DNA of 64,000 nucleotides from an uncultured Leptospirales bacterium (lineage in GTDB: Bacteria; Spirochaetota; UBA4802; UBA5550). The stretch spans positions 91,858-155,857 of the forward strand of contig CAYVCQ010000001.1 in the NCBI GenBank assembly GCA_964450405.1, written 5' to 3'. This document shows positions 26,160-30,785 of the stretch, in pieces. The position numbers and the translations under genes were made by a program. The notes beneath the pieces were generated by a model. That model saw nothing but the letters and a program-made list of their open reading frames with translations. It was not told the origin of the DNA and did no database searches. Within the stretch, counting starts at the first letter, position 1; each line of letters starts with the position of its first letter.

Positions 26160-27370
26160 ATCAACCCCCAGTCAGAAATCTTGTATAAAATCAGAAATAT
26201 AAATGACAGCACCGCACCGGCAATATAAACAGGGAAAGCTATTTTAATCTCTCTCTTTACACCAGATAAACTTGTATAGGTTGAAGCTCCGGTAAACTGA
26301 AGCGCCATATACGATGAAAGAAGCGGGAAGATAATCATCATCGATATAATCAGATATATTTTGTACAATTCAAAAACGTCAGCAAAATAAAACAGAGAGG
26401 CAAAGAGCACAACTCCTGCGACCCATCCCTTAACCGCAAATGCCCTGAATGGAATAAAAGGTAGAAATACAGGAGTAAAAAAAGCACCTGTAAAAATAGA
26501 AAATAATCCCGCAGCAATAAAAGGATACCCTTTCACAATCGAATCTCTGAATATTATTCCCTGTGGTGTTAGTCCGAAAAATATAAAAACAAAAAGAAGA
26601 AAAAGTGGAAACTTCGAGAAAATCTGACGCAGTTCAATTGGTGTAAGAATCAATCTATCTATAATATCAAACCTGACACTACGCATTTCAGCGTCGCACT
26701 TATATCCGTTATTTACATATGCACTTAAATCCTCTGCACGTACAGGTCCGTAGGCAACTCTGAAGCCGCTCTTTCTCCTCACCTCGCCCGAATCAATACC
26801 CGGCGCACCAAGTTGCGGGACTATCAGTTTTTTGTGCGAAACAATTTCCGCCAGTCTCACAAGGGAGATCCGTTTCACCAGTTCTTCTGTACCAAATGTC
26901 CCTTTCCCCGCAGCGCACCATACGTTTATACCGTTTGTATCCAGAACAAGAATCCATGCGTTTATACCGTTTAATGAAGCACGAACCGCATCAAAACTCA
27001 TTTTGTAATTTGCTGTTACAAAAACTTCACTGCTCTGACCCGGAGCTCCAACTGCATAGAGTCCCGGCTTCAAAGTATAATTCATCCTGAAGGAACTAAT
27101 CCTGGCCTTAACCGTTTCCCACTTGTCACGAAAAGAGAGAACCGTTGATACCACAGGCAGATCTGCCGCAGCGGTATGAACATAGCCTGTAATAAATGGA
27201 TAATTATACCGGGTCAGAGCATCATTTTCTCTGCCAGGGGTCAGAGCCCCGTTATTTGAGACAGAAATAGTACCGGGGTCAGAGCATCCGCATGAAGATT
27301 TGACCGGAGGTTGAGTTTTAATCACCGGAGAGATCCGTTTATCGGAGGTATTTAACTTTTCAAATTTCAT
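26156..27370 (-). CDS. hgcA: HgcA, the corrinoid protein of mercury methylation (CFeSP-like cap-helix domain plus C-terminal transmembrane domain)
   Basis: Hallmark motif NVWCAAGKGTF = N(V/I)WCA(A/G)GK with the strictly conserved cap-helix Cys. Five predicted TM helices in the C-terminal half. ATG at 27370 is preferred; the track extends to a TTG at 27406 that overlaps arsR. Confidence 0.85.
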   Translation of the reverse strand: MKFEKLNTSDKRISPVIKTQPPVKSSCGCSDPGTISVSNNGALTPGRENDALTRYNYPFITGYVHTAAADLPVVSTVLSFRDKWETVKARISSFRMNYTLKPGLYAVGAPGQSSEVFVTANYKMSFDAVRASLNGINAWILVLDTNGINVWCAAGKGTFGTEELVKRISLVRLAEIVSHKKLIVPQLGAPGIDSGEVRRKSGFRVAYGPVRAEDLSAYVNNGYKCDAEMRSVRFDIIDRLILTPIELRQIFSKFPLFLLFVFIFFGLTPQGIIFRDSIVKGYPFIAAGLFSIFTGAFFTPVFLPFIPFRAFAVKGWVAGVVLFASLFYFADVFELYKIYLIISMMIIFPLLSSYMALQFTGASTYTSLSGVKREIKIAFPVYIAGAVLSFIFLILYKISDWGLI

Positions 27371-27380
27371 ATGCCGCCTT

Positions 27381-27770
27381 TCAACATTTACATTCACTAT
27401 TTTCAATTTTTATTGACCCTAAGAGAGCACCCAGGAGCAGAGACATCTCGGCTATACCCTCAATATTAAGGCAGTAACAGGATCTGGGACCGTCTATCAC
27501 ACCGGAGATCAATCCGACCGATTTCAGTTCCTTTAAATGCTGCGAAACCGTCGACTGAGCAAGGGGAATTTCGAGGACAATCTCACCGCAGATACAGCTG
27601 TTCCTCTGTGCAAGGATTTTCAAGATTTCTATGCGTGCAGGATGAGCGATTGCCTTTGCAAAATCGGCCGTTTTGAGGGAATTTTTGCTGAATATTTCTT
27701 TCTTATTATTTATCATAGTTATCGTATATCGCAAATATACGATAATGTCAAGGAATAATTTTACAGGCAC
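27381..27770 (-). CDS. ArsR/SmtB-family transcriptional regulator directly upstream of hgcAB
   Basis: HTH region FAKAIAHPARIEILKILAQRNSCICGEIVLEIPLAQSTVSQHLKELKSVGLI with a CxC metal-site-like motif. 10-nt gap to hgcA. Confidence 0.75.
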   Translation of the reverse strand: MPVKLFLDIIVYLRYTITMINNKKEIFSKNSLKTADFAKAIAHPARIEILKILAQRNSCICGEIVLEIPLAQSTVSQHLKELKSVGLISGVIDGPRSCYCLNIEGIAEMSLLLGALLGSIKIENSECKC

Positions 27771-27799
27771 TCGGAAAAAGTAGAAAATACAGCTACTGG

Positions 27800-28390
27800 C
27801 TAAAAATAAACAGCAATCCGCTTTAAATATGCCTCTTCGTAAAATAAAAAATTTTTAACACATTCTTTAAATGAAGACCCTAAATTTATAAAGTAGTAAT
27901 GAAGGGTAAACTTAATCTCAAATTCAACATTTTCATCCAGATAACAGTTAATAAAACCAATACTGTTTTTTCTTGGATCTCGCGACAATCCTTTCCTGAC
28001 AGGATTATATCCTATGTACCAGAGTAACCATAAAAGATATTGTTCAGGATTATCAGATTCTTCTATAATTGTAGATCCAAAGCGTTCATTCCAGAATGCC
28101 CCTGTCTCACCCAATGCGCGGTTATATTTCTCAGCTATTCGCGATTTAATGTACTGCATAATCCCTGAAATTGTTTGTTTATCCTCAAGAGTTCGGATTA
28201 CAAGGTGAATATGATTACCAACCGTTTCTGCAGCAATCAGCTCGAAATCATATTTTTCCTGGCACATCTTTACAGCTTCAATAAAATATATATTAGCATA
28301 TCTGCTTCTTAGCAAGTCTCTTTTACCGTGGCATCTTGTAAAACAGTGATATGTTGCTCCCTGAATTATTTTTCTTAATGGTCTCGGCAT
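27800..28390 (-). mobile_element. REP-associated tyrosine transposase (RAYT; IS200/IS605-like TnpA, Y1 HUH family)
   Basis: 196 aa. HUH motif HIHLVI. Typical Y1_Tnp / transposase IS200-like fold signature (YHCFTRCHGK...GNHIHLVI...YIGYNPVRKGL). No adjacent tnpB. Flanked by GGGTCAGAGC-type inverted repeats. Confidence 0.7.
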
Positions 28391-29461: not shown

Positions 29462-29717
29462 GTGCCATATTAAATTCTTGACATTATTATATCATTTGTC
29501 CAGTGTAATATGAAATTTATACTCACTTAAAGAGTTTCTGATAAATAATATAATATACGGCAGACGCAAGGGATATTTGCGGATTCGAAGACGTTTCAGG
29601 GTCAGAGCCATATTACCAGCTGCCATATGTTTTAAACCTGTGGGGGTGAAGAAAACAGATTATATTGCATTTATTCATCAGTAACTAAATATAACTTAAA
29701 AATCAGGAGTAGCCATT

Positions 29718-30710
29718 ATGAATTTTGTCGAAGCCATGAGAGCGAAAGCAAAAGTTGCAGGAAGAAAGCTTGTCCTTGCAGAGGGAACAGAGCCAAGAAC
29801 AGTTAAGGCAGCAAGAATGATAATTGACGAAAAAATTGCCTCAGAGGTTTTCCTGGTGGGAAACAAAGATGCAATAGCAAAAGTTGCAGGAGAGCAGGGA
29901 GTAAAACTTGACGGAATTACACTTATTGATCCAGCTACAACAGAGCTTAAAGCAGAATATGCAAATGCATTCTTTGAAATGAGAAAGCACAAGGGTGTAA
30001 CTGAAGAGGAAGCAGCAAAGGCAATGCTCGACAACCTCAGATGGGGCGCCATGATGGTTAAGAAAAATGCTGTAGCCGCTATGGTTGCTGGAGCAGAAAA
30101 TTCAACAGGTAAAGTTCTCCTTGCAGGATTCAACATCATCGGAACATCTCCCGGAGTTAAATCTGCATCTTCATGTTTCGTAATGGATATGCCTGACAAG
30201 AAGTGGGGAAAAGACGGGCTTATGATCTTTGGAGATTGCGCGACAATTCCAGATCCTACTGCTGAGCAGCTTGCGGAAATTGCAATACAGTCAGCTGAAT
30301 CATGTAAAAAATTCCTCAACACAGAACCGATTGTAGCTCTTTTATCTTTCTCTACAAAGGGATCAGCAAAACATGAGAATGTTGACAAAGTTGTAAAAGC
30401 TCTTGAGCTAATCAAACAGCTTGCACCTGATCTTAAGGTTGATGGAGAACTTCAGGCAGATGCGGCACTTGTTGCAAGCGTAGGTCAGCAGAAAGCTCCA
30501 GGCTCTACAGTTGCAGGTTTTGCCAATACACTTATATTTCCCGACCTTCAGTCTGGAAACATCGGATACAAACTTGTTCAGAGATTCGGAAACGCAGCGG
30601 CATACGGCCCATTCCTACAGGGATTTGCTCAGCCTATCACTGACCTTTCAAGAGGATGCTCTGTTGAAGAGATTGTAAACACTGCGGCAGTAACACTTGC
30701 ACAGGCATAA
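29718..30710 (+). CDS. pta: Phosphate acetyltransferase (phosphotransacetylase)
   Basis: 330-aa Pta/EutD-like protein: MNFVEAMRAKAKVAGRKLVLAEGTEPRTVKAA ... SRGCSVEEIVNTAAVT. Confidence 0.8.
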   Translation: MNFVEAMRAKAKVAGRKLVLAEGTEPRTVKAARMIIDEKIASEVFLVGNKDAIAKVAGEQGVKLDGITLIDPATTELKAEYANAFFEMRKHKGVTEEEAAKAMLDNLRWGAMMVKKNAVAAMVAGAENSTGKVLLAGFNIIGTSPGVKSASSCFVMDMPDKKWGKDGLMIFGDCATIPDPTAEQLAEIAIQSAESCKKFLNTEPIVALLSFSTKGSAKHENVDKVVKALELIKQLAPDLKVDGELQADAALVASVGQQKAPGSTVAGFANTLIFPDLQSGNIGYKLVQRFGNAAAYGPFLQGFAQPITDLSRGCSVEEIVNTAAVTLAQA

Positions 30711-30747
30711 GAAAGAATTTAAATTTTCCGGTTAAACGGAGAGATAT

Positions 30748-30785
30748 AATGAAAAGCAGGGGCTCTGACCCCTGCTTTTTTTATA
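30748..30785 (+). terminator. Rho-independent terminator of pta; its stem carries the GGGGCTCTGACCCC REP-like motif
   Basis: gaaaagcaggggctctgacccctgcttttttt. 7-bp GC stem plus a U-tract. Confidence 0.7.

Follow-up and report, generated by a model that had tools for sequence, protein, structure and literature searches.

Among the gene systems in which bacterial chromosomes carry a tyrosine-transposase-like gene together with its own short repeats, the closest to the one described here are the TIRtrons of Di Nocera, De Gregorio & Rocco (2013), in which genes (TIRYTs) similar to those of the REP-associated tyrosine transposases (RAYTs) are flanked by terminal inverted repeats (TIRs) and not by GTAG-type repetitive extragenic palindromes (REPs) (PMC3733652). 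The sequence GGGGWSAS is common to many TIRtron repeats, whose distance from the gene is similar, and extra repeats occur as singles, dimers or groups (PMC3733652). Most TIRYTs were placed by Quentin et al. 2018 in TnpAY1 subclass 2.1 (PMC6006769), which is characterized by a median length of about 238 aa, a C-terminal helix-turn-helix (HTH)-like domain and the motifs NH[VYF]H and Y[IV](E/H)LNP (PMC6006769). Y---NP is the signature of class 2, the RAYT-like proteins, while IS200 proteins have Y---Q (Table 1, PMC6006769). In-frame repeats inside genes have precedents both in subclass 2.4 and in the survey of Di Nocera and coworkers (PMC3733652). The E. coli TnpAREP protein cleaves and recombines its own repeats in vitro, and in published models new units join those already in place and the enzyme may act from a distance (PMC3333891); the cited papers call the mechanism of repeat dissemination by RAYTs and its frequency in vivo unknown. 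Here we describe a Y1 gene and an associated 12-nt DNA word in a 64-kb stretch of contig CAYVCQ010000001.1 from an uncultured Leptospirales bacterium (positions 91,858 to 155,857; hereafter the window), and compare them with related loci from other Spirochaetota.

A short DNA word and its family of Y1 genes

An exact search for the 10-mer GGGTCAGAGC (complementary strand GCTCTGACCC; full 12-nt consensus RGGGTCAGAGCM) over the full window recovered 11 copies, against 0.03 expected from dinucleotide shuffles. All of them are confined to 6.5 kb (24217-30771), with starts and strands 24217(-), 27032(-), 27211(+), 27238(+), 27276(+), 28448(+), 28477(-), 28501(-), 28907(+), 29599(+) and 30762(-), and the remaining 57 kb contain no exact copy on either strand. 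The copies are essentially all exact, because tolerance of one mismatch adds merely four sites window-wide (1.6 expected). An earlier reading of this DNA, the original prediction, had reported at least nine copies near the Y1 gene; the dense local cluster is borne out, but the copies at 24217 and 27032 had been missed, three starts had been placed slightly off (28487 for 28477, 28908 for 28907 and 30763 for 30762), and a supposed 9/10 near-match in tRNA-Phe has two mismatches and is simply tRNA sequence. It had correctly placed copies within coding sequence: six of the 11 are intragenic, four in the 5' part of hgcA, one in metF and one in the signal-peptide region of a gene for an fn3-domain protein.

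For comparison we fetched three orthologous loci (L002, L003 and L004) and 64 further homologous loci from Spirochaetota metagenome-assembled genomes (MAGs), the homologous loci sampling about 30 MAGs. The gene order pta-metF-Y1-arsR-hgcAB was found in L002, L003 and L004 only, and the other loci represent unrelated contexts. In most of the 64 loci GCTCTGACCC is the top G+C-rich 10-mer around the Y1 homologue. A density gradient was computed over 58 Y1 loci, 54 of which lie outside the hgcAB/metF gene context, and 51 of the 58 show at least one exact copy within 3 kb of the Y1 gene (median 5, maximum 15). The density peaks at the edges of the Y1 gene and is near background past 3-5 kb: intergenic DNA holds 5.9 copies/kb at 0-0.5 kb from the gene, 3.3 at 0.5-1 kb, 3.4 at 1-2 kb, 2.6 at 2-3 kb, 0.30 at 3-5 kb and 0.28 at 5-10 kb, and the corresponding values for coding DNA are 0.48, 0.69, 0.20, 0.10, 0.05 and 0.015 copies/kb. 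None of the 58 Y1 genes contains a copy. Five of the seven loci that lack the exact word carry a variant of it, namely GGTTCAGAGC in L017 and L057 and GGCTCAGAGC in L024, L025 and L028; L061 has an unrelated repeated 10-mer, and the seventh, L031, is a 3.2-kb contig with just 47 bp upstream of the gene. The loci with variants are neighbours on the protein tree, and their flanks carry the variant of their own clade. The word belongs to the Y1 gene, and not to hgcAB, arsR or metF.

Within 3 kb of Y1 genes (308 kb in all) we counted 313 exact copies where 0.5 would be expected and 74 one-mismatch copies where 14.7 would be expected, 33 of the latter being the two clade-specific variants; two-mismatch copies are at background. 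Beyond 5 kb (445 kb) there are 21 exact copies (0.6 expected), mostly in small satellite clusters without a Y1 gene. Such clusters, with three to five exact copies 5-9 kb from the Y1 gene, no Y1-like open reading frame (ORF) alongside and some copies in unrelated genes, were seen in L011 (700-2200), L014 (13300-13480), L048 (2750-2915) and L044 (4770-4900). A metagenome scan for the hairpin pair GGGTCAGAGC N5-35 GCTCTGACCC gave at least 120 contigs; among those listed, most are soil contigs of 55-70% G+C in which one hairpin occurs and a Y1 gene is lacking, as could arise from chance 10-bp stems among very many hairpins or from further TIRYT lineages. Multi-copy clusters of the 10-mer were also seen in high-G+C contigs of other lineages (L142, L133, L173, L085 and L104), including 12 copies in L142 (3.8 kb, 65% G+C) and, in L104, a Y1 homologue of 52% identity beside the hairpin; the word is therefore in use well beyond this spirochaete clade. 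Literature matches to the 10-mer were unrelated primers only.

In a logo of 348 copies the information resides solely in RGGGTCAGAGCM, the flanks being uninformative; position -1 of GGGGTCAG is G in 66% of copies and A in 28%. The logo shows neither a GT[AG]G foot nor a palindrome of 20-40 nt, and the word itself is not palindromic. The earlier description as a RAYT with cognate REPs holds in essence, though not in full: the word is cognate to the Y1 gene, as its recurrence in 54 other contexts attests, but it is a TIR-type word and not a classical REP. Read in gene orientation, the family layout often starts with GGGTCAGAGC, 17-35 nt, GCTCTGACCC(C), 3-8 nt and 6-10 T, runs on through about 30 nt with ..CGTAT(T/A)AAT.., GGAG, the ATG and 196 codons, and ends with the stop codon, 0-26 nt and (G)GGGTCAGAGC(C). 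Exact inverted copies of 10-15 nt bracket the gene in most of the 57 loci compared for terminal repeats, 64-139 nt upstream of the ATG and 0-26 nt past the stop. The near-identical paralogues L048 and L049 of one MAG, the only such pair among 58 genes, resemble each other between the upstream repeat and the stop codon, beyond which they are unrelated; at least one duplication of the entire bracketed unit has therefore taken place. The window keeps an intact upstream repeat (28448-28457) with its hairpin partner, but a deletion has removed the downstream repeat that L002 and L003 possess. L002, the closest relative, is the mirror image of this arrangement (upstream exact, downstream deleted in the window): its three upstream copies at 2470-2545 have one mismatch each (GGGTCAGGGC, GGGTCAGAGT and GCTCTGATCC) and its downstream repeat is exact.

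Pairs of copies at most 80 nt apart are predominantly direct (89), with 26 hairpin-type and six divergent pairs, so that hairpin-type doublets make up 26 of the 121. Tandem arrays occur in L027 (2273-2472; 11 units of a 19-nt period), L019 (2547-2652; five of 24 nt) and L036 (about 255-300; three of 19 nt), and within loci the flank similarity of dispersed copies is almost wholly due to tandem arrays and one segmental duplication. Of the copies within 3 kb, 75 of 313 (24%) lie inside predicted coding sequence, where they use all five stop-free frames and never the sixth, which contains TGA; the conserved object is therefore a DNA word and not a peptide.

The Y1 protein and the history of its locus

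The Y1_Tnp (HUH) tyrosine-transposase-like gene at 27800-28390 (-), which we characterized through Pfam, NCBIfam, its fold and its ratio of non-synonymous to synonymous divergence (dN/dS), encodes 196 aa. The protein matches Pfam Y1_Tnp (PF01797) at 1e-11 (45.5 bits, cut-off 23), and Pfam detects no HTH in it; among NCBIfam models transpos_IS200 scores 31 bits, behind REP_Tyr_transpos (NF047646), which is the best match at 61.1 bits but stays under its cut-off of 80. In an alignment of 37 homologues the HUH motif N59-H60-I-H62, the sequence FWNERF and the Y125 motif LLWLLWYIGYNPVRK are invariant or nearly so. The last of these reads Y125-IGY-NP, with N129 and P130 invariant, and as YIGYNP it conforms to the class 2 (RAYT/TnpAREP) signature Y---NP. 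An AlphaFold2 (AF2) model with a predicted local distance difference test (pLDDT) value of 85 was matched by Foldseek to 4er8, 2xm3, 2ec2 and 2a6m (E 7e-7 to 5e-4). Of these, 4er8, E. coli TnpAREP in complex with a REP hairpin, is the nearest (E 7e-7, template-modelling (TM) score 0.66 on the target), ahead of the TnpAs of ISDra2, Sulfolobus and IS608; in the model the last 60 residues form short helices and one long helix. This link to TnpAREP needs the fold search; a sequence search of PDB gives only a marginal IS200 match (E 0.18). The fold and the Y---NP signature agree with the RAYT identity given in the original prediction.

Spirochaetota MAGs yielded over 450 homologues, 70-88% identical and almost without exception 196 aa long; the 'RayT' labels on homologues from JGI are COG names and not evidence. 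In one homologue (P0120) the putative catalytic tyrosine is replaced (WRIGYNP), and in another (P0116) the C-terminus reads ..GSEPVF, i.e. the downstream repeat overlaps the end of the ORF. A plasmid search found no relative above 35% identity, the best, distant matches of the window protein being cyanobacterial. No tnpB adjoins the window gene, whose neighbours are arsR and metF. That the word is not uniformly abundant and that the protein has no TnpB partner agrees with the original prediction.

The order pta-metF-Y1-arsR-hgcA-hgcB is conserved across four genomes (the window, L002, L003 and L004; hereafter the four syntenic genomes). Between the window gene and its syntenic orthologues dN/dS is 0.03-0.04 and synonymous divergence (dS) is saturated at 1.7 or more; across Y1 orthologues dS spans 0.6-4.9 and dN/dS 0.01-0.07. 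Judged from these sequence comparisons, the Y1 gene is under strong purifying selection. Conserved synteny, saturated dS and low dN/dS together imply that the arrangement beside hgcAB is old, and the recent insertion between hgcAB-arsR and metF that had been suggested is not upheld. The housekeeping-like behaviour of RAYTs comprises vertical inheritance, purifying selection, few identical duplicates and about 1-2 copies per genome. MAGs of the present family carry 3-8 Y1 paralogues, more than the 1.3-1.8 copies reported for RAYT groups (PMC5581495); within a genome these are mostly 78-87% identical, with one-to-one orthologues in DAONAJ and CALMRZ. The Y1 gene is an old, conserved and domesticated-looking resident.

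The metF copy, the first hgcA copy (27276) and the pta terminator occupy identical positions in all four syntenic genomes. In the first 300 nt of hgcA, where 35% of columns are invariant, the longest invariant run is ATGCTCTGACCC, the 27276 copy; in metF 1.1% of 10-column windows are invariant across the four genomes, and in the Y1-metF spacer the only long invariant runs are the halves of the word and the metF -35 region. New copies have arisen in two ways. One is by insertion, as in an 11-17-nt intergenic insertion in L002 and in a window-specific, in-frame insertion of 24 nt in hgcA (27212-27235, + strand), evident in DNA and protein alignments of the four orthologues. The latter adds eight residues (GRENDALT), bringing the 27211 copy and a 14-nt spacer beside a pre-existing copy, and its ends can be placed no more precisely than to within one repeat length. 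The other, indel-free mode is taken up below.

The genes around this locus begin, for our purposes, with that for the fn3-domain protein (22865-24289, -), whose signal-peptide region contains the copy at 24217-24226 (-); in L002 a copy likewise lies 63 nt from the start. A gene for a metallo-beta-lactamase-fold protein (24673-25656, -) and hgcB (25869-26159, -) follow; hgcB has a one-mismatch copy, GGGACAGAGC, at 25910-25919 (-), and the orthologous site is exact in L003 and L004, a one-base difference that belongs with the indel-free gains. In hgcA (26156-27406, -) three direct copies lie in the variable N-terminal coding region at 27211-27285 (+; starts 27211, 27238 and 27276), read in two frames as ..CSDPG.., ..ALTPG.. 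and ..ALTRY.., and a fourth at 27032-27041 (-; ..APGQSSE..) is common to L002 and L003, the L004 site differing at three bases. The ~60 N-terminal residues of HgcA are highly variable and partly made of the repeat word. HgcA has the cap-helix motif NVWCAAGK, and with the arsR-hgcA-hgcB set (25869-27770; arsR-family regulator gene 27381-27770, -) this Spirochaetota genome is therefore a predicted mercury methylator.

Upstream of the Y1 gene is a cluster of three copies (28448-28510): 28448-28457 (+), 28477-28486 (-) and 28501-28510 (-). The 28448 copy is the left terminal repeat, reads GCTCTGACCC on the Y1 sense strand and ends 57 nt before the ATG. With the 28477 copy it forms a strong hairpin with a 10-bp stem and T-runs on both strands (folding free energy (dG) -17 and -19 kcal/mol, z -5.3 and -5.7 for the two strands), which is kept in L003 and L004 and degenerate in L002 (one mismatch per copy). 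In metF (28571-29461, +) the copy at 28907-28916 (+; ..DGSEHF..), the exact one shared by all four syntenic genomes, is preceded by 336 nt of the gene and ends 346 nt from its start codon. The spacer between metF and pta (29718-30710, +) contains a solo, unstructured copy at 29599-29608 (+), with an L002 copy nearby but not at the identical position. The intrinsic terminator of pta (30751-30780, +) reads GCAGGGG-CTCTGA-CCCCTGC followed by T7 (dG -12.4, z -6.4), the copy at 30762-30771 (-) forming its loop and 3' arm. Inverted pairs with T-runs had been predicted both upstream of the Y1 gene and after pta: the former is present at 28448/28477, and after pta there is a single copy within the terminator. 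The six-nt loop of this terminator is inverted in L004 (about 7640-7660) relative to the window (30755-30776), TCAGAG against CTCTGA, with identical 7-bp stems; this is either a loop flip or separate colonisation in two orientations.

When the copies were folded, only the upstream cluster and the pta terminator were strongly structured in the window, and the coding-sequence copies and the 29599 copy showed no structure. An Rfam scan of 24000-31500, which includes the Y1-metF spacer, gave nothing above threshold except tRNA-Phe (30928-31002, -). The window also contains a second, unrelated repeat family of two intergenic elements of about 110-130 bp (15158-15266 and 32000-32129), which resemble miniature inverted-repeat transposable elements (MITEs) and are bounded by inverted 13-nt sequences, CTGTCATTTCGAA...TTCGAAATGACAG, inside which lies a second inverted pair, GAGAAATC.../...GATTTCTC.

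Proposed mechanism and alternative explanations

Based on these observations we propose, as the probable explanation, a TIRtron/REPtron-type system in which a vertically inherited RAYT-like Y1 (HUH) gene is coupled to the cognate recognition word RGGGTCAGAGCM. The Y1 enzyme would recognise the word on single-stranded DNA near its own gene, cleave beside it and rejoin strands, and the protein would thus be predicted to bind, cleave or strand-transfer GGGGTCAGAGCC in a sequence-specific manner. Units of spacer plus word would be added next to existing words, which would explain the excess of direct pairs, the tandem arrays and the 24-nt insertion in hgcA, and words would occasionally be seeded a few kb away. 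Action preferentially in cis could give rise to the kb-scale gradient, a scale similar to that of the single-stranded stretches at a replication fork. Coding DNA would retain only those outcomes that are in frame, free of stops and placed where they are tolerated, and in this A+T-rich genome G+C-rich hairpin copies may have been co-opted as terminators, as in the pta terminator and the bidirectional hairpin between Y1 and metF. The window unit could no longer move whole, because its downstream repeat is deleted.

A number of points weigh against this proposal. That the Y1 enzyme binds, cuts and spreads the word is something we infer from sequence. The word alone is not a hairpin, while the DNA recognised by known Y1 enzymes is folded; a following C, with which the GGGG-TCAGAG-CCCC mini-hairpin would begin, is present in only 46% of copies. 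We found no locus-wide strand bias of the kind that forms the lagging-strand signature of IS608-type elements. We also considered whether the 24-nt insertion in hgcA derives from the upstream hairpin by copying of its loop, and rejected this, the similarity (10/14) being within chance for 55 pairs. Word density is known from the window and the fetched loci. Three further observations remain unexplained by the model: multi-base replacements without indels in hgcA (..AEALTPYL.. in L004, ..AALTLFP.. in L003), which cut-and-paste does not predict; the near absence of degenerate copies, with about 26 unexplained one-mismatch copies beside 313 exact ones where a passively decaying family would look otherwise; and the exactness of shared copies despite dS >1.7. 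These three either favour selection of binding sites or point to an enzyme-driven homogenising process.

The second of these options would be a local molecular drive, in which the Y1 enzyme in cis writes the word and keeps it exact, the words being no relic of transposition. Such an enzyme would insert or overwrite about 10-12 nt in single-stranded DNA within roughly the distance of an Okazaki fragment, coding DNA included, and would also re-homogenise existing copies, which would account for the indel-free replacements, the scarcity of one-mismatch copies and the exactness across saturated divergence; we put it forward tentatively, as a rather unlikely explanation. About equally doubtful is the first option, in which the words are selected binding sites of the Y1 protein or of another factor with a host function in local regulation, termination or chromosome structuring, arising by ordinary mutation and retained by selection without any mobility. 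A bare 12-nt word with no flanking homology and almost no degenerate halo, orthologous copies that stay exact at saturated synonymous divergence and form the longest invariant runs in variable DNA, the indel-free gains and the participation of some copies in terminators are what such sites would look like. Binding sites would not, however, account for lineage-specific insertions that carry the word, tandem arrays of word and spacer or a duplicated unit bounded by repeats (L048/L049); the coding copies sit in five frames of unrelated genes with no apparent regulatory logic, and the full catalytic HUH/Tyr set is kept, which would be superfluous in a pure binder.

An ordinary active insertion sequence (IS) of the IS200/IS605 type, with the words as its ends and the extra copies as scars of insertion and excision, would fit the Pfam Y1_Tnp match, the presence of up to eight copies per genome and the one near-identical pair whose identity is bounded by repeats. 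We regard this as very improbable: the orthologues sit in conserved synteny at dS of at least 1.7 and dN/dS of 0.03-0.04, most paralogues share 78-87% identity and correspond one to one between genomes, the gene has no adjoining tnpB and the protein has Y---NP and not the Y---Q of IS200 (PMC6006769). Moreover, IS200/IS605 elements excise seamlessly and would leave no words strewn through coding DNA, and plasmids hold only distant relatives below 35% identity. A genome-wide word, whether compositional or akin to an uptake sequence, or an operator of ArsR/hgcAB can be dismissed almost entirely. The uptake sequences of Neisseria and Haemophilus do resemble the present word in being short, exact and found in coding DNA and as terminator hairpins, and arsR does adjoin the Y1 gene. 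However, 57 kb of the window are free of copies, the gradient is steep and centred on Y1 genes, 54 of the 58 loci lack arsR and hgcAB, and the word varies with the Y1 clade; the gradient in unrelated contexts together with the clade variants rules out an uptake-type word, an ArsR operator and an hgcAB-specific element alike.

For the question of how RAYT-type enzymes spread and maintain their repeats, the spirochaete family constitutes an unusually clean natural data set: a recognition element of 12 nt, dozens of independent loci with one kb-scale gradient, clade-specific word variants usable for specificity swaps, and gains of both the insertion type and the indel-free type visible inside alignable genes. 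The words are tolerated and conserved inside the essential-pathway genes metF and hgcA. This bears on annotation and on how apparent conservation is read in hgcA, which serves as a marker for mercury methylation. If enzyme-driven maintenance were true, it would represent a new kind of local DNA editing in bacterial chromosomes, short-patch and HUH-mediated.

Comparison with described systems

Elements of the IS200/IS605 group (IS608, ISDra2) share the catalytic fold and the HUH/Tyr chemistry with the system described here, and the proposed logic of cutting and inserting beside the word mirrors the TTAC target and left-cleavage site of IS608. They differ in that the present loci lack subterminal hairpins, tnpB and a multi-copy population of identical elements, and in the Y---NP in place of Y---Q. 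A DNA uptake sequence would be expected at uniform density genome-wide, in contrast to a gradient centred on Y1 genes.

The REPtrons of E. coli and Pseudomonas RAYTs (PMC2817692, PMC3116915, PMC3333891, PMC8266576, PDB 4er8) are alike in having a vertically inherited, domesticated-looking Y1 HUH gene flanked by inverted cognate repeats, co-variation of protein and repeat, some terminator-like hairpins and the closest solved fold. Unlike them, the present family has no GT[AG]G foot, no imperfect palindrome of 20-40 nt and no family at the 16-mer level, and its copies are concentrated within about 3 kb of the gene where REPtrons have hundreds genome-wide; inverted doublets make up the smaller part of the pairs, the local copies are intragenic in 24% of cases, the gene occurs in several copies and the protein scores below the NCBIfam RAYT cut-off. 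The unit of a REPIN (Bertels & Rainey 2011) is an inverted REP doublet with 16-mers repeated genome-wide; here only 26 of 121 close pairs are hairpin-type doublets, no 16-mer is shared because the information ends after 12 nt, and 57 kb of the window have no copy at all. Subclass 2.4 (Bertels Group 4; cyanobacteria and Bacteroidetes) is similar in median length (194 aa), in its NH[IFV]H motif and in having in-frame repeats in genes, but its REPs are long, of GTAG/'double-foot' type and often inside tnpA, as against no copies in 58 Y1 genes here, and its motifs are WQ and YIxNNP as against WN and YIGYNP.

The closest correspondence is with the TIRtrons and their TIRYTs. Terminal inverted repeats lie at a near-constant distance from the gene in most of the 57 loci, the repeat core GGGGTCAG fits GGGGWSAS, additional copies are found singly, as dimers and in groups, and one genome can hold several divergent genes. 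The present family departs from them in that the conserved repeat is just 10-15 nt long and up to eight paralogues share one word, and the TIRtron papers do not describe a kb-scale gradient, intragenic copies in all stop-free frames or exactness across a phylum-level clade. In length and motifs the protein does not fit subclass 2.1, being of 196 aa with NHIH, FWN and YIGYNP and having no detectable HTH-like C-terminal domain. The bare 12-nt word, the 24% of copies in coding DNA, the exactness at saturated divergence and the two modes of gain are unusual; the system as a whole is of a known kind, in which a RAYT-like gene is accompanied by cognate repeats, but its form is unusually minimal and local.

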